Part shown: in pieces, positions 8,082 through 29,914 of the stretch | Numbering within the stretch: position 1 is the stretch's first letter | Layout of the letters: every line of letters begins with the position of its first letter | IMG/VR virus record: IMGVR_UViG_2537561830_000002 | DNA length: 52,488 nt | Direction: 5' to 3' (one strand) | Source of the DNA: a virus | Lineage: Duplodnaviria; Heunggongvirae; Uroviricota; Caudoviricetes | Program-made: the position numbers and the translations under genes | Notes under the pieces: generated by a model | Told to the model about the DNA's origin: nothing | Databases searched by the model: none | The model's input: only the letters and a program-made list of their open reading frames with translations

Positions 8082-9012
8082 ATTAACCGGCTATGTATGG
8101 GATGGTTGCGCTGCGTCAGGCATGAAATTATCCAGCGTGGCAATTATGGCCCGCCTGGCTGATTTCAGTAATGACGAAGGTGTGTGCTGGCCATCAATTG
8201 AAACCATTGCCCGTCAGATTGGCGCGGGGATGAGTACCGTCAGAACGGCTATCGCACGGCTGGAAGCAGAAGGCTGGTTAACGCGTAAGGCGCGTCGCCA
8301 GGGTAACCGCAATGCGTCGAATGTTTATCAGCTTAACGTTGCGAAGCTTCAGGCAGCGGCATTTTCTCAACTGTCAGATTCTGACCCGTCAAAATCTGAC
8401 GCATCAAAATCTGACCCGTCAAAATTTGATGCGTCGAAATCTGGCAAAAAAGCGGGTTTTCACCCGTCAGAATCTGGCGGGGATCCGTCAGTAAAATCAA
8501 AACATGATCCGTCAGATAAAAAAACTTCTCGTCCGGACGCTTCGCAACCGGACACGCAGACGGCTGAACAGGAGTTTTTAACTCGCCATCCTGATGCGGT
8601 TGTATTCAGCCCTAAAAAGCGCCAGTGGGGGACGCAGGATGATTTGACCTGCGCACAGTGGCTCTGGAAAAAAATCATCGCCCTGTACGAGCAGGCTGCC
8701 GAATGTGACGGCGAGGTGGTTCGTCCCAAAGAACCGAACTGGACAGCCTGGGCAAACGAAATTCGCCTGATGTGTGTGCAGGATGGTCGTACTCACAAAC
8801 AAATCTGCGAGATGTACAGCCGCGTCAGCCGCGATCCGTTCTGGTGCCGTAACGTGCTCAGCCCGTCGAAGCTGCGGGAAAAATGGGATGAGCTTTCCCT
8901 GCGCTTATCGCCGTCCGTAAGCACGTACACCGAAAAACGCGAAGACCCGTACTTCAAATCCAGTTACGACAACGTGGACTACAGCCAGATCCCGGCAGGA
9001 TTCAGGGGGTGA
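8071..9012 (+). CDS. replication initiation protein (lambda O-like) with internal iteron region
   Basis: N-terminal winged-helix region, central SDSDPSKSDASKSDPSKFDASKSG repeat encoded by iterons, C-terminal domain. Confidence 0.8.
   Translation: MSTKLTGYVWDGCAASGMKLSSVAIMARLADFSNDEGVCWPSIETIARQIGAGMSTVRTAIARLEAEGWLTRKARRQGNRNASNVYQLNVAKLQAAAFSQLSDSDPSKSDASKSDPSKFDASKSGKKAGFHPSESGGDPSVKSKHDPSDKKTSRPDASQPDTQTAEQEFLTRHPDAVVFSPKKRQWGTQDDLTCAQWLWKKIIALYEQAAECDGEVVRPKEPNWTAWANEIRLMCVQDGRTHKQICEMYSRVSRDPFWCRNVLSPSKLREKWDELSLRLSPSVSTYTEKREDPYFKSSYDNVDYSQIPAGFRG
8371..8525. repeat. iterons (candidate replication origin) within the O-like gene
   Basis: About 7 copies of a ~15-bp unit ccgtcaaaatctgac and variants at regular spacing. 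Confidence 0.6.
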
Positions 9013-9014
9013 TT

Positions 9015-9503
9015 ATGAGTCTTTTGAATGAAGTTCAGAAATTCATTGAAGCCCATCCGGGGTGTACTTCCGGAGACATTGCGGATGCTTTTGCTGGTTA
9101 CTCACGGCAGCGCGTTCTGCAGTCAGCAAGCAAGTTACGTCAGAGTGGGCGTGTGGCTCACCGTTGTGAAGGGGATACACGCAGACATTTCCCGCGCCTG
9201 ACTGAGAGAGCGCAGGATCCGGAACCACAACCAGTTCGTGAAACCAGACCTGTGCGCAATTTCTATGTCGGCACTAACGACCCGCGGGTGATTTTGTGCC
9301 TGACCCGCCAGGCGGAAGAACTGGAGTCCAGGGGCTTATACCGTCGTGCTGCAACGGTGTGGATGGCGGCATTCCGTGAAAGCCACTCCCAGCCAGAACG
9401 AAACAATTTTCTGGCGCGTCGTGAACGGTGTTTACGGAAAAGCAGTAAGCGGGCTGCATCAGGTGAAGAGTGGTATCTCTCAGGGAATTACGTGGGGGCT
9501 TAA
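9015..9503 (+). CDS. hypothetical DNA-binding/regulatory protein (163 aa)
   Basis: ATG just after the O-like stop; N-terminal winged-helix-like segment; arginine-rich C-terminus; family uncertain. Confidence 0.5.
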   Translation: MSLLNEVQKFIEAHPGCTSGDIADAFAGYSRQRVLQSASKLRQSGRVAHRCEGDTRRHFPRLTERAQDPEPQPVRETRPVRNFYVGTNDPRVILCLTRQAEELESRGLYRRAATVWMAAFRESHSQPERNNFLARRERCLRKSSKRAASGEEWYLSGNYVGA

Positions 9504-10156
9504 TGAGTAATAAATATTGCCAGGCGCTGGTGGAACTGCGGAACAAACCAGCCCATGAACTGAAGGAAGTGGGCGATCAGTGGCGCACGCCGGACAACAT
9601 TTTCTGGGGAATTAACACCCTGTTTGGCCCGTTTGTTCTGGATCTGTTCACTGACGGTGATAACGCCAAATGTGCTGCGTATTACACGGCGGAAGACAAC
9701 GCGCTGGCGCATGACTGGTCAGAACGCCTTGCGGAGCTTAAAGGTGCTGCCTTTGGTAATCCCCCATACAGCCGCGCCAGTCAGCATGAGGGGCAATACA
9801 TCACCGGCATGCGTTACATCATGAAGCATGCCAGTGCCATGCGTGATAAAGGCGGGCGCTATGTTTTCCTGATCAAAGCTGCCACCAGCGAAGTGTGGTG
9901 GCCGGAAGATGCAGATCATATTGCTTTTATTCGCGGGCGTATTGGTTTTGAACTGCCTGCCTGGTTTATCCCGAAGGATGAGAAGCAGGTGCCGACAGGC
10001 GCTTTCTTCGCTGGTGCTATTGCTGTTTTCGACAAGACCTGGAAGGGACCGGCAATCAGCTACATCGGGCGCGATGAACTTGAGGCATGTGGTGAGGCCT
10101 TTCTGGCGCAGGTTCGCCATCAGGCAGAAAAACTGGTCAGGGAGATGGCGGCATGA
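9503..10156 (+). CDS. orphan phage DNA N6-adenine methyltransferase
   Basis: FGNPPYS catalytic motif; TAATG overlap with the upstream gene; no partner endonuclease nearby. Confidence 0.85.
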   Translation: MSNKYCQALVELRNKPAHELKEVGDQWRTPDNIFWGINTLFGPFVLDLFTDGDNAKCAAYYTAEDNALAHDWSERLAELKGAAFGNPPYSRASQHEGQYITGMRYIMKHASAMRDKGGRYVFLIKAATSEVWWPEDADHIAFIRGRIGFELPAWFIPKDEKQVPTGAFFAGAIAVFDKTWKGPAISYIGRDELEACGEAFLAQVRHQAEKLVREMAA

Positions 10157-10479
10157 CGACGTTAACTCAATGCCAGCAGCAGGTGCTGGATATGCTGATT
10201 TCTTATCAGCAAGAACGTGGCTTCCCGCCAACCAATCAGGAGGTGGCAACCATGCTGGGATACCGTTCAGTGAATGCAGCGGTGGAGCATCTTCGCGCAC
10301 TGGAGAAAAAAGGCGTCATCACGATAAAGCGTGGCGTGGCCCGGGGGATAACGCTTCATACCGCGGTGAAGGACGACGACAGCGAGGCGGCCGGGATTAT
10401 CCGCGCACTGCTTGCTGGTGAGGAAAACGCCAGGCTGCGTGCAGCCCACTGGTTACATGAGAGGGGGCTGAAAGTATGA
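10153..10479 (+). CDS. LexA-like winged-helix DNA-binding protein (108 aa, no peptidase domain)
   Basis: CQQQVLDMLISYQQERGFPPTNQEVATMLGYRSVNAAVEHLRALEKKGVI resembles the LexA N-terminal domain; ATGA coupling. Confidence 0.65.
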   Translation: MTTLTQCQQQVLDMLISYQQERGFPPTNQEVATMLGYRSVNAAVEHLRALEKKGVITIKRGVARGITLHTAVKDDDSEAAGIIRALLAGEENARLRAAHWLHERGLKV

Positions 10480-10865
10480 AGCTGATTCTGCCTTTTCCAC
10501 CCAGCGTGAACACCTACTGGCGACACCCCAACAAAGGGGCATTTGCTGGTAAGAGCCTGATAAGCGCGGCGGGGCGAAAATTCCAGAGTGCGGCGTGCAC
10601 AGCAATAGTTGAGCAGTTACGTCGTCTGCCGAAACCAACGTCAGCACCTGCTTCAGTGGAGATCGTGTTGTTTCCTCCGGATAACCGGATCCGCGATCTG
10701 GACAACTATAACAAGGCGCTGTTTGACGCCCTGACCCACGCGGGTGTGTGGGAAGACGACAGCCAGGTGAAAAGAATGTTGGTGGAGTGGGGACCGGTTA
10801 TCCCGGAAGGGAAGGTCGAGATCACTATCAGTAAGTACGAGAAACCGGCGGGTGCAGCCGCCTGA
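10476..10865 (+). CDS. rusA: RusA Holliday-junction resolvase
   Basis: MKLILPFPPSVNTYWRH...DLDNYNKALFDALTHAGVWEDDSQV is the characteristic RusA sequence. Confidence 0.85.
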   Translation: MKLILPFPPSVNTYWRHPNKGAFAGKSLISAAGRKFQSAACTAIVEQLRRLPKPTSAPASVEIVLFPPDNRIRDLDNYNKALFDALTHAGVWEDDSQVKRMLVEWGPVIPEGKVEITISKYEKPAGAAA

Positions 10866-10884
10866 TCAAGAGGAGAAACGAAGT

Positions 10885-11682
10885 ATGAATAATCTGATGG
10901 TCATTGATGGTATTGAAGTTCGTCGTGATGCTTATGGGCGTTACAGCCTGAACGATCTGCACAGGGCTGCCGGTTCTCTGGATAAGCATAAGCCTGCATT
11001 CTGGCTCCGCAATGAGCAAACTGAACGTTTAATAAGCGAGTTGCAGATTTGCAACTCGGTCAATATAGAGCCAGTTAACGTTATTCGTGGCGGAAATAAC
11101 CAGGGGACGTATGTCTGCAAAGAACTGGTGTATGCCTATGCAATGTGGATCAGCCCGTCATTCCATCTGAAGGTGATCCGTACTTTCGATATGGTAACCA
11201 GCACACCGGAAAAAATATCCGGGCAGGCTGCTGACAAGATGCAGGCTGGCGTGATCCTGCTGGACTTTATGCGCAGGGAATTAAACCTGTCTAACTCATC
11301 AGTGCTTGGAGCCTGTCAGAAGCTTCAGGAGGCTGTTGGCTTACCGAATCTGGCACCGCGCTATGCCATTGATGCTCCTGCTGACGCGCCTGATGGCTCA
11401 AGTCGCCCCACGCTGTCGCTGAGTGCACTGCTGAAACAGTATGGTATCCGCCTTACGGCTAATCAGGCATATCACCAGATGGTGAAGCTGGGGATCGTTG
11501 AACAACGCGAACGATACAGCCGTACCGCAATTAACAACATTAAAAAATTCTGGTCGCTGACGGCGAAAGGCTGCATGTTCGGCAAGAACATCACCAGTCC
11601 CGCAAATCCGCGCGAGACGCAGCCGCATTTCTTCGAATCCCGATTCCCTGAGCTGTTAAAGCTGCTCGATACCGTTCATTGA
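10885..11682 (+). CDS. KilA-N domain protein
   Basis: MNNLMVIDGIEVRRDAYGRYSLNDLHRAAG... N-terminal KilA-N-like region; AGGAGA RBS. Confidence 0.7.
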   Translation: MNNLMVIDGIEVRRDAYGRYSLNDLHRAAGSLDKHKPAFWLRNEQTERLISELQICNSVNIEPVNVIRGGNNQGTYVCKELVYAYAMWISPSFHLKVIRTFDMVTSTPEKISGQAADKMQAGVILLDFMRRELNLSNSSVLGACQKLQEAVGLPNLAPRYAIDAPADAPDGSSRPTLSLSALLKQYGIRLTANQAYHQMVKLGIVEQRERYSRTAINNIKKFWSLTAKGCMFGKNITSPANPRETQPHFFESRFPELLKLLDTVH

Positions 11683-11683
11683 G

Positions 11684-12679
11684 GTGACCGTGAGAGCACT
11701 ACTGACCCCTGAAATAGCCCCGCGTATGGGGATCGTATTGTTCAGGCCAGGTTCAGAGCTGATGCCCCTGTTTATGCAGGGGCGTGTTCTGCTGGAGCCT
11801 GAGCCGGAGCGTTATTCATCTTTCGCCAGTGGTGCCGTTCCTGCGGCATCACAACCGCTGGCGGATGATCCTGCCGTTCTGGCCGTGTTCCGTAATGAGG
11901 CAGTGATTCGTCGTGCTGGTGGGGTGGAATGTCTTGAAAGCTGGTTACTTCGTGAAAAAGGCTGCCAGTGGCCTCATTCCGACTGGCACAGCGAGAACAT
12001 GACCACAATGCGACACGCGCCGGGCGCAATCCGTCTGTGCTGGCACTGCGATAACCAGCTTCGCGATCAGTTCACGGAACGGCTGGAATCAATGGCAACG
12101 GATAACTGTGCCCGCTGGGTGTTGTCTGTTGTGCGTCGGGATCTCGGTTTTGATGATAGTCACGTTGTGACAATGCCGGAACTGTGCTGGTGGCTGATTC
12201 GTAATGATCTGGCAGATGCCTTACCGGAAAGTGCAGCCCGTAAGGCACTGAGATTACCGAAGCCTGTTGTGCCGTCTGTCACCCGGGAAAGTGATCTTGT
12301 GCCTTCGGTTCCTGCCACCAGCATCATCCAGGATAAGGCGAAAAAGGTGCTGGCGCTGAAAGTGGATCCGGAGTCGCCGGAGTCTTTTATGTTACGCCCA
12401 AAACGCCGCCGCTGGGTTAATGAAAAGTACACGCGCTGGGTTAAGACACAGCCGTGTGCATGTTGTGGAAAGCCTGCTGATGATCCCCACCACCTGATAG
12501 GCCATGGTCAGGGTGGAATGGGTACAAAAGCGCATGACCTCTTTGTGTTGCCTTTGTGCAGAAAGCATCACGACGAGCTGCATGCGGATACCGTGGCATT
12601 TGAAGAGAAGTATGGTTCCCAGTTGGAGCTGATATTTCGTTTTATCGATCGTGCGCTGGCAATTGGCGTGCTGGCCTGA
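11684..12679 (+). CDS. DUF968 family phage protein (YdfU-like)
   Basis: C-terminal Cys/His cluster CACCGKPADDPHHL...CRKHHDELH; GTG start uncertain (ATG at 11726 is an alternative). Confidence 0.7.
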   Translation: MTVRALLTPEIAPRMGIVLFRPGSELMPLFMQGRVLLEPEPERYSSFASGAVPAASQPLADDPAVLAVFRNEAVIRRAGGVECLESWLLREKGCQWPHSDWHSENMTTMRHAPGAIRLCWHCDNQLRDQFTERLESMATDNCARWVLSVVRRDLGFDDSHVVTMPELCWWLIRNDLADALPESAARKALRLPKPVVPSVTRESDLVPSVPATSIIQDKAKKVLALKVDPESPESFMLRPKRRRWVNEKYTRWVKTQPCACCGKPADDPHHLIGHGQGGMGTKAHDLFVLPLCRKHHDELHADTVAFEEKYGSQLELIFRFIDRALAIGVLA

Positions 12680-12697
12680 TTTTTTCGGAGAAAGTTG

Positions 12698-13084
12698 ATG
12701 CGTAATATACAGATGATCCTTGAACGTTGGGGGGCATGGGCAGCGAGTGATAGCTCAGGAGTTGACTATTCGTCTATAGCTGCTGGGTTTAAGGGGCTTC
12801 TTCCATATACCAGAAAGACACGTCTAGCTTGTTCAGATAGTGATGCATTAATTATTGAAGGTAGCCTTGCTCTTCTTAAGAAGAGAAAACCGTACGAACA
12901 TTCTTTGATTGTGGCTCATTACCTGTATGGCATCTCGAAAAGAAAGATCGCAAAGGCACGTAATAAAGACGAAAAATTGATACGTATCGAGATACAGGTT
13001 GCTGAAGGTTTTATCGATGGCTGCCTAAGTATGCTGGATGTGAAACTTGAAATGGATGACTACTCTGAGTCTCCTGTAGCATGA
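12698..13084 (+). CDS. late-gene antiterminator Q (P22 gene 23 type)
   Basis: MRNIQMILERWGAWAA...SIAAGFKGLL matches the P22 gp23 family from memory; GGAGAAAG RBS. Confidence 0.8.
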   Translation: MRNIQMILERWGAWAASDSSGVDYSSIAAGFKGLLPYTRKTRLACSDSDALIIEGSLALLKKRKPYEHSLIVAHYLYGISKRKIAKARNKDEKLIRIEIQVAEGFIDGCLSMLDVKLEMDDYSESPVA

Positions 13085-13695
13085 AATAATGAAACGACCA
13101 TATGTCTTACATAATATGGTTGATTTGTAGCTGGATGCAATGTTGTACTCATGAATCGCAAGGGATTATCCTCGTCGGTTGTAATTTTTGCATCAGCTAC
13201 TTCCTGCTGAAGATGCTTTCGCCAGTCATCAAGTCTCTCGCCAGATTTCTTAATTTTACAGTAAATGATAATGCCACCATGGTTGTCACGCGCAGTGCCT
13301 GTGCCATATCGCTCGTTGAGCTGGTTCCATCCACCTAAGATGTACGCAGGACCTTTCCATAATTTAGCTTCGCCAATCCATGCAAATCGGCCGAGCTGAT
13401 GTTTAACTAATATATCTATATGCCCTCCATGCTGAGTGTCATGTTCAGCGTCATAATTACGGCCTTTCAAAAAAGCAATAATAACTGATGTGAGCTCATC
13501 TTCACCCCACTGCTGTGTTTGATACATATGTTTTTGGGTTTCCAAAACATACATCGCGTCATCAAGGTCAACGTAAAGTTGCTTCACGAAATCGTCGTGA
13601 CTTGCTGCAAATTTTCGCTTAAGAAAACCAGACAATTCAGGGTCAAATTGACTTAAGGTGTCTAATTGGGCAAGGTTGAAATTACATTCACTCAT
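13060..13695 (-). CDS. cassette gene C: hypothetical protein with PD-(D/E)xK-like nuclease motif (211 aa)
   Basis: Motif E84..D94 (GGHIDILV)..E109-A-K111 (WIGEAKLW); strong GGAGG RBS; AT-rich; 3' end overlaps the Q 3' end convergently by 25 nt. Confidence 0.7.
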   Translation of the reverse strand: MSECNFNLAQLDTLSQFDPELSGFLKRKFAASHDDFVKQLYVDLDDAMYVLETQKHMYQTQQWGEDELTSVIIAFLKGRNYDAEHDTQHGGHIDILVKHQLGRFAWIGEAKLWKGPAYILGGWNQLNERYGTGTARDNHGGIIIYCKIKKSGERLDDWRKHLQQEVADAKITTDEDNPLRFMSTTLHPATNQPYYVRHMVVSLFHATGDSE

Positions 13696-14110
13696 GTAAT
13701 TCCTCCAAAGCCTCAGTAGGAGTGAAGTATGGGAACAAATAATGATTATAATTATCGACTAATTGACCACTGTAAGGATGATAAAACTTACCTGTATGAA
13801 GCGCATGAGACACGTCATCATCATCGACGGGAATAGGATCACTATCGTCAGACTCGATATACTGGAAATGCATATCTAGCAAGTGCATTCTGTTGCTCGA
13901 AAGATAGTCAGTTACTTTGATCAGTAAAACTTTGGCATCGTTATTTTGCACATCAAGCTTAGTACCATTAACCAAACTTACATATGTTATGTGTTTCAGT
14001 GACTTAGCTTCTTTGCTGGTTAAAAAATCAACCACAACACGACATAAATCTCCAACCGGCCCATGTAGGTCGTGGTTGATTTTCGAGTATATGTCGTGTT
14101 TAGTTAACAT
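13688..14110 (-). CDS. cassette gene B: hypothetical protein (140 aa)
   Basis: ATG at 14108-14110 (the track ORF starts on TTG at 14116); stop overlaps gene C start by 8 nt; acidic stretch DSDPIPVDDDD; no motif recognised. Confidence 0.65.
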   Translation of the reverse strand: MLTKHDIYSKINHDLHGPVGDLCRVVVDFLTSKEAKSLKHITYVSLVNGTKLDVQNNDAKVLLIKVTDYLSSNRMHLLDMHFQYIESDDSDPIPVDDDDVSHALHTGKFYHPYSGQLVDNYNHYLFPYFTPTEALEELHE

Positions 14111-14120
14111 AATCAACTCT

Positions 14121-15218
14121 TTATGCAGCCTCGTCAGTGGCTCGCTTTCTCTGTATGCTTGATAGTGACTCTAACATCTTGTTGATTACAAACAAAATAT
14201 GCTCAATTGAGGAGCAACGATCTATGATTGCATCATAAAGGTGACTGTTCGGTTTATCAATCATAGCCCGTTTACCTGGCAGTATTAATTCTACAGGGAA
14301 AACTTGAGAAGCTGAATCAGTCAGATCCCAAATTTTACCGAGTTTGTATTTCGTTAGTATGGGACTTGCCTCTTCGCCCCCATGATGGTAGCTGTCTGAG
14401 CGCAAGCAGCTTTCACCCGGACGGAGTTTTAATGAGCTGGTGTTTCCATCTGATGTAAGAAATGACATCTGCGAGATTCTACCATCTGTTTGCTCGTACA
14501 TTTCTTGTACTAATCCAAAGAGGTCAATGGGCGCAGGTAAAGTCAAACCAGTAGTAGTTCTAATAAACTGATCAAGCAAAAATTGCTGTCGTTCCGACTC
14601 TGAACGAGGCATCACAGATAAATCAACAGTGAGCGCAAGTAAATGCAACTCGGGTAGAATCATTATTGTATTAAAGCACTGTGTAACTTCACGTGTTTTA
14701 CATTTGATTTCACCACCATTGGAGCGAAGAGCTAGCCCAGCATCGCTTAAATGGGTCGCGTCGAGTTCAATAGTTTCTGTGTAGTATGCTTTCGACGTAA
14801 GAATCGTTGTTTCTAAAGAAACTTTGTTTACGACAGAAAATGTAGTTTCTAAAAAATGAAGATCTGTATCAGCTGCAAGCAACACATCTTTAGGCAAAGG
14901 ATATGGATAGCTTTCGCAAAAAACGGATTCGTCTCTTTCTAGGGCATTTATATTCTCCCGTAGAGTTTGCACTTCTTCCGGTTCTAACTTATACAGCTTA
15001 ACTAAACGGGTCCCACTCAATAGTAAATTTTGCCATACTTCACCTATATGAGTACTTACAGCTTCCTGATCTACATCTTCTGTTGCTTGGAGCCTCGCGA
15101 TAAATGGGTCAAGGCCAACTGATGTGACACCAAGTGGTTCCCCCACAATTTTTTTTGTGAGCTTCCATCCAACACGTTCGGTGATATCTCTTAAAAGGTT
15201 GATCGTTTGCTCATTCAT
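14121..15218 (-). CDS. cassette gene A: hypothetical protein (365 aa)
   Basis: ATG at 15216-15218 (the track ORF starts on TTG at 15260); 10-nt gap to gene B; no Walker or other motif recognised; AT-rich. Confidence 0.7.
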   Translation of the reverse strand: MNEQTINLLRDITERVGWKLTKKIVGEPLGVTSVGLDPFIARLQATEDVDQEAVSTHIGEVWQNLLLSGTRLVKLYKLEPEEVQTLRENINALERDESVFCESYPYPLPKDVLLAADTDLHFLETTFSVVNKVSLETTILTSKAYYTETIELDATHLSDAGLALRSNGGEIKCKTREVTQCFNTIMILPELHLLALTVDLSVMPRSESERQQFLLDQFIRTTTGLTLPAPIDLFGLVQEMYEQTDGRISQMSFLTSDGNTSSLKLRPGESCLRSDSYHHGGEEASPILTKYKLGKIWDLTDSASQVFPVELILPGKRAMIDKPNSHLYDAIIDRCSSIEHILFVINKMLESLSSIQRKRATDEAA

Positions 15219-15299
15219 AAGAAACCCTTTTTTGTATTTTTTTGTACTTTTTGAAGGCAATTTAGATAGTCCTTAACATACTAAATTAACGAACATATT

Positions 15300-15340
15300 T
15301 CATTAGCACGGTCCGCAAAAAGTGATGTATCATGTTAAGA
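15300..15340 (+). promoter_or_regulatory. candidate late promoter pR' / Q utilisation region
   Basis: -35-like TTAGCA and -10-like TATCAT upstream of a short-transcript terminator, as in lambdoid late regions; weak. Confidence 0.3.
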
Positions 15341-15363
15341 GTGGTTACTTCGCCACACAACTT

Positions 15364-15387
15364 AAACCCGCCGTCGAGCGGGTTTTG
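15364..15387 (+). terminator. rho-independent terminator (tR'-like) upstream of the holin gene
   Basis: aaacccgc-cgtcga-gcgggttttg: GC stem plus T-run on the plus strand. Confidence 0.55.
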
Positions 15388-15536: not shown

Positions 15537-15863
15537 ATGCCTCATAACCCAAATACCTGGCTGGACTTGGTCCAGAGCTGGTGGCGTGGAGACACACCGC
15601 TGGGTGCAGTGATTATGTCGATCGTTATGGCTGGTTTGCGCATCGCCTATTTTGGCGGTGGTGGTGGCTGGAAGCGAAAAACGCTCGAGATTTTGCTATG
15701 TGGCGCTCTGACGCTGACCTTTGCATCCGCTCTTGAGTATGTCGGATGGCCTAAATCGCTTTCTGTTGCCATTGGTGGTGGCGTGGGGCTGATCGGTGTC
15801 GATGCTATTCGTGGGGCTGCAATGCGAGTAATCGGTAACAAATTTGGTAGCTCGAAGGAGTAA
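15537..15863 (+). CDS. holin (108 aa)
   Basis: Three hydrophobic segments with Gly-rich turns; directly upstream of the endolysin gene. Confidence 0.8.
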   Translation: MPHNPNTWLDLVQSWWRGDTPLGAVIMSIVMAGLRIAYFGGGGGWKRKTLEILLCGALTLTFASALEYVGWPKSLSVAIGGGVGLIGVDAIRGAAMRVIGNKFGSSKE

Positions 15864-16832: not shown

Positions 16833-17126
16833 TTATTGTGAGCAATACACCCGCGCTTCCAGCGGAGTATAAATGCCTAAAGTAATAAAACCGAGCAATC
16901 CATTTACGAATGTTTGCTGGGTTTCTGTTTTAACCACATTTTCTGCGCCGCCACAAATTTTGGCTGCATCAACAGTTTTCTCCTGTCCAATTCCCGAAAC
17001 GAAGAAATGATGGGTGATGGTTTCCTTTGGTGTTACTGCTGTCGGTTTGTTTCCAACAGTAAACGTCTGTTGAGCACATCCTGTAATAAGCATTGCCAGA
17101 GCGGCAGAAAACAACATTTTTTTCAT
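16833..17126 (-). CDS. bor: Bor lipoprotein (lysogenic conversion)
   Basis: MKKMLFSAALAMLITGC... near-identical to lambda Bor; lipobox LITGC; AGGA RBS. Confidence 0.9.
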   Translation of the reverse strand: MKKMLFSAALAMLITGCAQQTFTVGNKPTAVTPKETITHHFFVSGIGQEKTVDAAKICGGAENVVKTETQQTFVNGLLGFITLGIYTPLEARVYCSQ

Positions 17127-17509
17127 CTTATTATCCTGCATTGTTAAAAACGGCAGAATCCTATGTGACAACAATTAAACGATAGTTAAATGGATTGATG
17201 AAAATTAAAACTATATAGGTGTACGGTCAGACTATTGGAGGTAGTCAGGATTTGAATGTCAGTCTGTTGTCGGCATTCTGGCAATGCAATTTGGATAAAG
17301 CGGGGATTAAAAAGATAGAGGCGAGCCGGTCAGGTAGAAATGAATCAGGCTCAAAGTGAAGCGGAAAAGGTCTGTGGTACAAGCTGATGCAGCCATAATT
17401 ACAGCCTGATGATTTGTGGAATGAAACATGTTGAACCTCCTTAATTGATGTTATTCGAGTGATGAAGGCATTCTGTCCTTCTATAGTGTCCAGTAAATCA
17501 AACAGGAAA

Positions 17510-27671: not shown

Positions 27672-27940
27672 TGAAAGAGCTTGAGTTAAAGAAACCGATT
27701 ACCGCTCATGGCGAGACACTCTCCGTACTGGAGTTTGATGAGCCCACCGGGAAAGATGTCCGCGAGCTGGGGTATCCCTACCAGATGAATCAGGATGAGT
27801 CCGTCAGACTTCTGGCGCATGTTGTATCGAAATACATTGTGCGGCTGGCGAAAGTGCCGCAAAGCTCTGTCGACCAGATGTCTCCGGCAGACCTGAATGC
27901 AGCGGCGTGGCTTGTGGCTGGTTTTTTCCTCCAGGCCTGA
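27671..27940 (+). CDS. tail assembly chaperone (short form)
   Basis: Small acidic ORF immediately before the tape measure gene. Confidence 0.7.
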   Translation: MKELELKKPITAHGETLSVLEFDEPTGKDVRELGYPYQMNQDESVRLLAHVVSKYIVRLAKVPQSSVDQMSPADLNAAAWLVAGFFLQA

Positions 27941-28089
27941 CGGCTGAATACCTCACTGATCGCTTCTTTGACTGCGCCAGCTACTGGCGCATTAATCCCT
28001 TCGAATTGCTGAATATGCCGATCAGTGAAATTCCCTTGCTGGTCAGTCAGGCAAACAGGATAGAGCAGGAGAAACGCACACATGGCTGA
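27907..28089 (+). CDS. -1 frame extension of the tail chaperone (frameshift product tail)
   Basis: Slippery heptamer T_TTT_TTC at 27922-27928 in the zero frame; -1 frame open to 28089. Confidence 0.55.
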   Translation: MACGWFFPPGLTAEYLTDRFFDCASYWRINPFELLNMPISEIPLLVSQANRIEQEKRTHG

Positions 28090-29914
28090 ATTTGAGCTTA
28101 AGGCGTTGATCACCGGTGTCGACAGGCTTTCTCCCGCGCTGTCGAAAATGCAAAAGAAAATCCGGGGATTTAAACGCCAGGCGGAAGAGGCGTCACAGGG
28201 TGGGCTGGCGCTTGGTGGCGGACTGGCAGCGGGTCTGACGCTTTCCCTGAAATCTTATGCCGATCAGGAAAACGCCGCCACCGGGCTGAAAGTCGCCATG
28301 ATGGATGCGAACGGCGAGGTCGGAAAGAGCTTTCAGGACATCAATAAACTGGCTATTGGCCTGGGTAACCAGCTACCCGGTACAACGGCTGATTTCCAGA
28401 ACATGATGCAGATGCTGGTGCGTCAGGGGATCCCGGCAGAAAATATTCTTGGCGGTGTGGGTAAAGCGACAGCTTATCTTGCGGTACAACTGAAAAAAAC
28501 ACCGGAAGCGGCTGCTGAGTTTGCTGCAAAGATGCAGGATGCTACCGGAACGGCGTCAGAAGACATGATGGGGCTGTTCGACACTATCCAGAAGGCGTTT
28601 TATCTGGGCGTTGACGATACCAACATGTTGTCCTTCTTCACTAAAACCAGTTCTGTTCTGAAGATGGTGAACAAGGACGGTCTTCAGGCTGCACAGAGCC
28701 TTGCCCCCATCAGCGTCATGATGGATCAGATGGGGATGAACGGGGAGTCGGCAGGTAATGCCCTGCGAAAAGTTATCCAGTCCGGATTAAGCGTTAAGAA
28801 AATCAGGGACGTCAATAAAGTTATGGCCCGTCAGAAACTCGGGGTACAGCTCGATTTTACTGACGGCAAAGGAAGTTTTGGCGGTCTTGATAACATGTTT
28901 AAGCAACTGGCAAAGCTGCGAAAACTTACCGACGTTAAGCGAACAGGTGTACTTAAGGCAATATTTGGTGATGATGCCGAAACCCTTCAGGTGGTCAATG
29001 CGCTGATCGATAAAGGAAAGGATGGTTACGATCAGATCCAGCAAAAGATGAATAAACAGGCCAGCCTGAATAAACGTGTTCAGGCACAGCTTGGTACGCT
29101 GTCCAACCTGTGGGAGGCAATGACGGGGACCGCAACTAACGGCCTTGCGGCTATTGGCGGCGCATTTTCTGGTGACGCCAAAAATATCACGCAATGGCTG
29201 GGGGAGTTGGGGGAAAAATTCACGAAGTTTGCGGATGAAAATCCCCGGGTTATTCGCGGCGTCGTCGGGCTTGCTGCCGGTCTTGCGATTCTGAAACTGG
29301 GATTGATGGGCGTGGGCAGTGCCATCAGCATTGTCAGCAGGATCATGTCGATGACGCCGATTGGCATGATTGCGACGGCGATAGCCCTGGCTGCGGGATT
29401 AATTATCACTAACTGGGATGTTGTCGGACCTTATTTCAAGAAGCTCTGGGAAACCATTGGTCCTTATTTTGAGGCTGGCTGGGAACTCCTTAAGAAAGTT
29501 TTTGCCTGGTCGCCGATGGGGATGGTGATCAATAACTGGGGGCCGGTTGTTAAGTGGTTTCAGGATATGTGGGACAAGCTGAAGCCAATTATTGAGTGGT
29601 TTACCGACAGTTCCGGTGACACGGTCGATGCCATTAACTCTGCGCAGTGGGGCGCGGGTGCTTATGATGCTTATGGGACGGGAATACCGGCACGGGGATA
29701 CACTCCTTATCCGGCGGTGGATCCGGCTCAGGCAAACAACGCCTCCGATGCCACAGGCTCGAATCCCTTCATGATTAATAAAGCTACCGCGCCAAAAGTT
29801 GATGGTGAGATCAAGGTATCATTTATAAATATGCCACCAGGTATGCGGGTTACGGAAACACGCTCCAGTGGCATTGATATAAATCACGATGTTGGCTATA
29901 CCCGATTTTGGTAG
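28082..29914 (+). CDS. tail tape measure protein
   Basis: 610 aa; helical with Gly/Ala-rich hydrophobic segment and Trp-rich C-terminus. Confidence 0.9.
   Translation: MAEFELKALITGVDRLSPALSKMQKKIRGFKRQAEEASQGGLALGGGLAAGLTLSLKSYADQENAATGLKVAMMDANGEVGKSFQDINKLAIGLGNQLPGTTADFQNMMQMLVRQGIPAENILGGVGKATAYLAVQLKKTPEAAAEFAAKMQDATGTASEDMMGLFDTIQKAFYLGVDDTNMLSFFTKTSSVLKMVNKDGLQAAQSLAPISVMMDQMGMNGESAGNALRKVIQSGLSVKKIRDVNKVMARQKLGVQLDFTDGKGSFGGLDNMFKQLAKLRKLTDVKRTGVLKAIFGDDAETLQVVNALIDKGKDGYDQIQQKMNKQASLNKRVQAQLGTLSNLWEAMTGTATNGLAAIGGAFSGDAKNITQWLGELGEKFTKFADENPRVIRGVVGLAAGLAILKLGLMGVGSAISIVSRIMSMTPIGMIATAIALAAGLIITNWDVVGPYFKKLWETIGPYFEAGWELLKKVFAWSPMGMVINNWGPVVKWFQDMWDKLKPIIEWFTDSSGDTVDAINSAQWGAGAYDAYGTGIPARGYTPYPAVDPAQANNASDATGSNPFMINKATAPKVDGEIKVSFINMPPGMRVTETRSSGIDINHDVGYTRFW

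Follow-up and report, generated by a model that had tools for sequence, protein, structure and literature searches.

A reverse-oriented cassette between an antiterminator gene and its putative late promoter in an SfII-like prophage encodes the anti-phage system DS-21

What is encoded by three AT-rich genes lying in reverse orientation between the Q antiterminator gene and the lysis genes of a temperate phage, and do they constitute a new defence system? The question is raised by a cassette in IMG/VR virus record IMGVR_UViG_2537561830_000002 (Caudoviricetes), a stretch of 52,488 nucleotides (nt) referred to throughout as the window. Its three genes, here called A, B and C, had been singled out from the sequence as a horizontally acquired module, most plausibly an anti-phage defence or abortive infection system of an undescribed kind (the original prediction). 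They are found to be DS-21, a defence system that others have already predicted, cloned, tested and named, and so no new system is added here. The genes are arranged as follows.

14121-15218, minus strand: gene A, equivalent to DS-21A; 365 amino acids (aa) from an ATG at 15218, isoelectric point (pI) 5.0.
13688-14110, minus strand: gene B, equivalent to DS-21B; 140 aa from an ATG at 14110, pI 5.3.
13060-13695, minus strand: gene C, equivalent to DS-21C; 211 aa.

A 10 nt gap separates A from B, an overlap of 8 nt joins B to C, and C and the convergent Q gene share 25 nt at their 3' ends; this three-gene minus-strand operon was recovered on recomputation exactly as originally described. Alternative TTG starts would extend A to 379 aa (14121-15260, the TTG lying 42 nt upstream of the ATG) and B to 142 aa (13688-14116). 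The RefSeq label for all three is 'hypothetical protein'.

On string comparison, the translations of A, B and C are identical, residue for residue, to DS-21A, DS-21B and DS-21C in Table S8 of DeWeirdt, Mahoney and Laub (Science, April 2026; PMC13092281), a study that appeared as a preprint in January 2025 (10.1101/2025.01.08.631726). There the system, with the working identifier TOXO, has the accessions WP_001532221.1 (A), WP_021552536.1 (B) and WP_001557682.1 (C; Tables S6 and S8), and originates from positions 7805-9963 of contig NZ_QOXJ01000032.1 in the ECOR assembly GCF_003334085.1. Table S6 marks TOXO as 'defensive TRUE' in the category 'Predicted novel defense gene', under the name DS-21, and Table S8 marks it as 'replicated TRUE' (PMC13092281). 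Judged by sequence, the window cassette is DS-21 itself, only the host genome copy differing from that of the paper. The expectation of an anti-phage function was therefore correct, in that 100% identical proteins protected Escherichia coli MG1655 (PMC13092281). The terms 'undescribed' and 'unrecognised type' cannot stand, because the cassette is identical to an already classified defence system, the very point on which the original prediction had made its novelty depend.

The BASEL phages sensitive to DS-21 are presumably of the Drexlerviridae type. In E. coli MG1655, the system gave -log10 efficiency of plating values of 4.48 with Bas1 (approximately 30,000-fold) and 2.0 with Bas11 (100-fold), and reduced the plaque size of Bas3, Bas9, Bas67 and T3 (PMC13092281, Table S7). 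The systems in that paper were cloned together with their predicted native promoter region, and the DS-21 construct spanned A to C only, plus the final 25 nt of Q, and nonetheless conferred protection; A, B and C together have accordingly been shown to protect against some phages (PMC13092281). Transcription units were defined in the same study as co-directional genes separated by gaps of no more than 30 bp, a definition that A-B-C fits with its 10 nt gap and 8 nt overlap. DS-21 is included there among '31 additional systems', 13 of them with PD-(D/E)XK domains, and the paper gives no prophage position for it. A full-text literature search by the A, B and C accessions returned no match, because these are present in supplementary tables only; likewise, nothing on the A-B-C system was found in a 2026 preprint on P2/P4 hotspots or in a 2026 domain-centric paper in Nucleic Acids Research.

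The triad extends well beyond the window. A tblastn search with the window proteins recovered the A-B-C order in 40 prophage loci of enterobacteria, the identity of A ranging from 100% to 47%, and this gene order is retained in more than 40 loci overall, down to 17-35% protein identity. A chance run of open reading frames is excluded, because the same three genes recur in the same order in all of these. Every context examined had A as part of the triad, and B was always located between A and C. More divergent triads, of corresponding sizes and gene order, occupy six further settings, one of them E. coli E2348/69. In Stx1a-converting phages the triad lies between Q and stx1, and a P2-like element of Klebsiella (record 'KP12_3') has it on the stretch that separates the gpA side from the portal gene. 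This Klebsiella position is one that we take to correspond to the site of tin and old on the P2 map. The P2 hotspot containing old and tin has been described by Rousset et al. (PMC9122126).

The remaining three settings are as follows. Moraxella phage Mcat13 (KR093637.1) harbours a triad of 352, 153 and 210 aa at about 27684-29811 of the record (locus L046, 4458-6585), a stretch across which the deposited record has no annotated genes. Similarly, a distant triad of 338, 142 and 217 aa is present on Acinetobacter contig CAKLQF020000019.1 (L044); this sequence, labelled 'Acinetobacter phage MD-2021a', resembles a bacterial chromosome contig, as it includes entF, fabG, garK, acrR and a nitroreductase gene. 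On an uncultured Alteromonadaceae contig (CANLWS010000007.1; L007, 5375-9890) the triad, with identities of 35%, 46% and 49% for A, B and C, has on one side a protein of the HNH type resembling type IV methyl-directed restriction enzymes (E=2e-8) and on the other, at the contig end, a P2-type GPA replication gene, which suggests a small P2/P4-like element carrying a two-system defence cargo. The triad is a conserved mobile unit found across several temperate-phage lineages of the Gammaproteobacteria. As DNA, the cassette was found in 12 of the 5426 complete E. coli genomes searched, and the phage collection yielded no record with it; in a large assembly collection, 1234 blocks are indexed as having exactly this A protein.

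How such a unit might work is suggested most clearly by C, which is predicted to be a PD-(D/E)xK nuclease and is the likely effector. Residues E65, D66, H92, D94, E109, K111, Q125 and Y130 are invariant in two alignments, one of 29 close homologues and one of 15 distant ones, and D94...E109-x-K111 has the classic PD-(D/E)xK layout; the signature recognised in the original prediction is therefore retained throughout both alignments, as befits a candidate nuclease. In Table S8 of the DS-21 paper, the hhpred_domains entry on the TOXO row lists an 'EXK position' of 121-123 and a 'D position' of 103, which do not fit C; the values 109-111 and 94 stand on the PDX1 row two lines below, such that columns and rows may be misaligned. 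The published searches matched residues 37-160 of C to the DpnII-MboI family (PF18742) by HHpred, with a probability of 0.96, and linked C to the Lamassu profile LmuA_effector_PDDEXK by HHblits, at 94.7 over 55% of its length (PMC13092281). With PADLOC models, residues 46-165 gave a weak partial match to positions 253-368 of the 410 in PDC-S54 (E=6.9e-6); the C-terminal part of this profile was matched by 27 of the 29 C-family members (best E=1.8e-7), and a CARF-domain model (CARF2--CARF) by four of the 29.

The partners of C are less easily assigned. A is best regarded as an orphan family: when 1.84 billion representatives were searched exhaustively with phmmer, 334 clusters were obtained (E<=1e-3; clustering at 50% identity), nearly all of whose members are 340-390 aa long and match over their full length, and hmmscan with A itself found nothing in Pfam, NCBIfam or PADLOC. 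Nor was there any Pfam, PADLOC or PDB match, other than scattered single hits, from a 70-sequence alignment of A or from its members. Conservation peaks at residues 240-280 (Y241, G246, F253, T255, R273, H278, G281), and published HHpred results include a weak HeH/SAP-like motif at residues 16-48, with a probability of 0.64 (PMC13092281). For B, hmmscan likewise gave no Pfam, NCBIfam or PADLOC match, nor, apart from scattered single hits, did the members of its alignment; the published HHpred assignments are DUF5939 at residues 1-138 (probability 0.94) and a winged helix-turn-helix (wHTH) at 21-73 (probability 0.8; PMC13092281). All three proteins fall into PHROG families of unknown function, phrog_12777 for A, phrog_11490 for B and a single family for C. 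Profile searches, which had been suggested as a check on the cassette, thus placed none of the proteins in a Pfam or NCBIfam family, the partial match of C to PDC-S54 being what they added.

The explanation that we consider very likely overall is that DS-21 forms a cargo placed in reverse orientation between Q and the late promoter that Q serves; its proteins may act along the following lines. C would be the effector, a PD-(D/E)xK DNA nuclease with D94, E109 and K111 as its catalytic residues. Recognition of the invader, or of its DNA, would fall to the fast-evolving A, by means of the HeH/SAP-like N-terminus and the conserved C-terminal core, and B, which is small, acidic and winged-helix-like and whose translation would be coupled to that of C, may bridge to the nuclease or restrain it until A is triggered. 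The activity of C could then result either in selective cleavage of phage DNA or in degradation of all DNA, that is, abortive infection. The specific division of labour, with C as DNA-cutting effector, A as recognition subunit and B as coupled adaptor or inhibitor, is put forward tentatively, as a possible rather than a probable scheme. It finds some agreement in the ranking of identities to the window proteins, with C above B above A both in loci of the E. coli E2348/69 type (60%, 54% and 51%) and in the distant loci (30-35%, 21-27% and 17-21%), a pattern that would suit a pairing in which the effector is conserved and the recognition component evolves faster. The surroundings of the triad also favour a defence role, namely the tin/old-type site in the Klebsiella element, the HNH neighbour in the Alteromonadaceae locus, and PDC-M53 and PDC-S20 at the corresponding site of related phages.

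Several points weigh against this interpretation. The faster divergence of A could instead reflect relaxed constraint. AlphaFold single-sequence models of A and C were unusable, with predicted local distance difference test (pLDDT) scores of 36 and 34.6, respectively. With hmmscan, C had no Pfam or NCBIfam match above the curated threshold, PDDEXK_9 appearing once at E=0.026, and profile searches of PDB with five alignments produced no credible match, C included. Furthermore, strong protection was limited to two of the 24 phages in the panel, and the main text of the paper contains no individual discussion of DS-21, which was studied at screen level only (PMC13092281).

The genomic setting of the cassette raises a second issue, namely why it should lie next to Q. 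The host element is an SfII-like prophage integrated at tRNA-Thr (thrW), the tRNA gene being at 1369-1444 of the window. A near-identical locus in E. coli NT1F10 belongs to a prophage next to tRNA-Thr, has the same RefSeq accessions for A and B as DS-21, and runs in the order integrase, early genes, KilA-N, DUF968, Q, three 'hypothetical proteins', holin, endolysin and Rz. In the window, the surroundings of the cassette are as follows.

12695-13084, plus strand: Q-family antiterminator gene (RefSeq 'antiterminator Q family protein'; Pfam Phage_antitermQ).
15219-15296, minus strand: inferred leader of the cassette with its presumed promoter, lying back-to-back with the late promoter.
About 15297-15363, plus strand: late-promoter/qut-like block, recognised by its conservation upstream of A and marking the right boundary of the insert.
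15364-15385, plus strand: terminator-like, tR'-like hairpin, from the terminator scan.
15537-15863, plus strand: holin gene, from the list of open reading frames.

The GC content of the cassette is 0.407, as against 0.541 in the upstream early genes (9000-12600) and 0.510 in the lysis genes, confirming that it is AT-richer than its flanks; the Q gene is likewise AT-rich (0.423). The cassette lies between Q and the putative late promoter and terminator, with the holin gene beyond, as had been proposed, and its status as a horizontally acquired accessory module at this position is supported. A second accessory gene of the prophage, encoding a Bor/Iss-family lipoprotein, is found in reverse orientation just past Rz (16833-17174, minus strand), and is named 'increased serum survival lipoprotein Iss' in RefSeq.

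The limits of the insert were defined by comparison with relatives lacking it. Cassette-free phages align to the window only from about 15300 onwards, and in PhiR5_1, where the site is empty, the match to the window begins directly after the stop codon of Q. A block of approximately 65 nt just upstream of A, followed by the terminator hairpin, is kept in 11 loci in which the identity of A ranges from 47% to 100%. From their position and conservation, we infer that the block comprises the Q-dependent late promoter and the qut site, and that the hairpin is tR'. The cassette would then sit between Q and Q's own target site, and not downstream of the late promoter, where the stx genes lie. Upstream of A (15219-15296), a consensus scan detected no sigma-70 consensus promoter; a TAnnTT element occurs about 60 nt upstream of the ATG of A in many aligned loci, although not in those of the E2348/69 type (L024, L027 and L041). 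Some 90 nt (15219-15310) accommodate both the putative promoter region of the cassette and, back to back with it, the -35 side of the late promoter.

The same position is used by other genes. In Shigella phage SfII it is occupied by the reverse-oriented SfII_49 and SfII_50 (L048, 1832-3446), which match PDC-M53B (E=2.8e-54) and PDC-M53A (E=2.1e-32), and in E. coli CFSAN064035 by a reverse-oriented, PifA/QatA-like KAP NTPase matching PDC-S20 (E=1e-176; L051, 2610-3941). Similarly, SfIV has the reverse-oriented gp48 and gp49 there (L049, 1922-3344), two proteins without any match. The original prediction had assigned the cassette to a hotspot between Q and the lysis genes; the site does hold further defence candidates (PDC-M53 and PDC-S20), but the cassette itself lies upstream of the late promoter, unlike stx, and in E2348/69 it lies, together with a Q-family gene, in the nin region at a considerable distance from the lysis genes.

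Association with Q is a constant feature of the enterobacterial loci. A convergent Q-family gene directly follows C in all 40 of the enterobacterial prophage loci with sequence extending past C, the two genes overlapping by up to 25 nt or standing up to about 30 nt apart, and the identity of Q ranging from 100% to 36%; one also follows C in the Stx1a phages. In E. coli E2348/69 (NC_011601.1; L043, 11502-14170), a Q-family gene and the cassette are together in the nin region, with hokD, DUF968, RusA, a second, canonical Q, tRNAs and the lysis genes downstream. Hitch-hiking would explain this linkage most simply: Q cannot be parted from its qut site, and therefore anything between them is co-inherited. 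A functional role for Q in the A-B-C system is unlikely, because the triad exists elsewhere without Q and the cloned region has just the last 25 nt of this gene.

A bolder interpretation can be built on this arrangement. The Q/qut junction may be a dedicated site for defence cargo in SfII-like and other lambdoid phages, at which reverse-oriented genes are locked to the Q-qut pair, the lock accounting for co-inheritance down to 36% Q identity and for the relocation to the nin region of E2348/69. Cargo of this kind would be active in the lysogen and silenced on induction by convergent read-through from early-right transcription, and DS-21A would be a new sensor of invaders without relatives of known fold. 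Silencing of the cassette by read-through during induction, which the original prediction had supposed alongside expression in the lysogen from a promoter of its own, would fit the geometry, since the 3' ends of C and Q overlap and the terminator scan found no terminator-like site between them. Taken as a whole, this set of proposals is doubtful; if true, however, the geometry of the site would amount to a built-in self-immunity switch at prophage induction.

Other explanations of the cassette differ either in how the proteins would act or in what they would be for. DS-21 might cause abortive infection in the manner of a toxin-antitoxin system, with C as a toxic nuclease, B as its antitoxin and A as an accessory or chaperone-like protein, infection freeing C to kill the cell. 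The small size and low pI (5.3) of B would suit an antitoxin, as would its 8 nt overlap with C, which suggests coupled translation and a fixed stoichiometry, and the smaller plaques formed without plating loss by four phages are compatible with partial abortive infection; yet A is the largest gene and never absent from the triad, and profile searches matched none of A, B and C to a known toxin or antitoxin family. This possibility, which we think unlikely, overlaps with the explanation preferred above, differing mainly in the role of B and the fate of the cell. Alternatively, the cassette could encode a modification-dependent or sequence-directed restriction enzyme without a methyltransferase, in which A and B recognise DNA and C cuts it directly, no infection trigger being needed. 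By HHpred, C is nearest to the DpnII-MboI family of restriction endonucleases, and A and B have motifs of DNA-binding type (HeH/SAP and wHTH, respectively; PMC13092281); in addition, the operon contains no methyltransferase gene, and the Alteromonadaceae copy adjoins the HNH protein that resembles type IV restriction enzymes. The DNA-binding assignments are, however, weak (probabilities 0.64 and 0.8), no ATPase, helicase or known reader domain for DNA modification was detected, and none of A, B and C has a Walker A motif, and direct restriction of this kind is judged quite improbable.

A further explanation is regulatory. The cassette would then be a phage life-cycle module tied to Q-dependent late transcription, through antitermination or the timing of lysis, and phage exclusion would be a side effect. 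Its appeal lies in the Q-family gene found after C in 40 of 40 enterobacterial loci and in the Stx1a phages, in the late-promoter/qut-like block that is always just upstream of A, and in the joint movement of a Q-family gene and the cassette into the nin region of E2348/69. However, the triad is found without any Q gene in the P2-like element, in Mcat13 and on the Acinetobacter and Alteromonadaceae contigs; the cloned A-to-C region was protective with only the last 25 nt of Q (PMC13092281); and close relatives of the phage lack the cassette or have other cargo at the site. Linkage to Q is more simply explained by the inheritance of anything between Q and the qut site and late promoter, and a life-cycle role for the cassette is accordingly very improbable.

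With DS-21 already established as a defence system, what is new here is the wide distribution of the triad, its linkage to a Q gene in 40 of 40 loci and the presence of other defence candidates at the same site. The value that remains is moderate, and consists of context for work on mechanism: the orphan A family, the distribution of the triad and the hotspot itself, an unusual place in lambdoid phages for such a unit. The locus also provides a setting for the question of how a prophage escapes its own nuclease system during induction.

Comparison with known systems shows a number of partial resemblances. C shares with the C-terminal part of PDC-S54 a nuclease domain, but the PDC-S54 candidate consists of one protein only, about 410 aa long, which has an N-terminal region of its own and no partners equivalent to A and B; full membership was rejected, as C covers only profile positions 253-368, the C-terminal quarter, and A and B had no match. 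Lamassu likewise comprises three genes, and the HHblits link to LmuA_effector_PDDEXK connects its effector with C (PMC13092281). Its own components are an LmuA effector with a PD-(D/E)xK or Cap4-type nuclease, the SMC ATPase LmuB, and LmuC, whereas A, B and C include no SMC or ABC ATPase and no Walker A motif, and matched no PADLOC model for LmuB or LmuC. Rst_3HP, described as 'hp + hp + hp' from the P2 hotspot (Rousset et al. 2022), is similar in consisting of three domain-less proteins in a hotspot of temperate phages, and a DS-21 homologue is found in the tin/old-type site of a P2-like element. Identity with Rst_3HP was rejected on protein size (about 346, 355 and 225 aa, versus 365, 140 and 211 aa) and on the lack of similarity to Hp1-3 of E. 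coli E1114, all bit scores being below 19 in blastp and in hmmsearch with the A, B and C profiles. The DpnII-MboI family (PF18742), the best HHpred match of C (PMC13092281), has the D...ExK catalytic core in common with it, although hmmscan against Pfam returned no PF18742 match for C or its relatives; C differs in being accompanied by two extra proteins and by no cognate methyltransferase. By contrast, SfII_49/50 (PDC-M53A/B) and the KAP NTPase (PDC-S20) resemble the cassette in their point of insertion, reverse orientation and AT-rich accessory character, but are composed of unrelated proteins, and so represent alternative occupants of the same site rather than homologues of DS-21.

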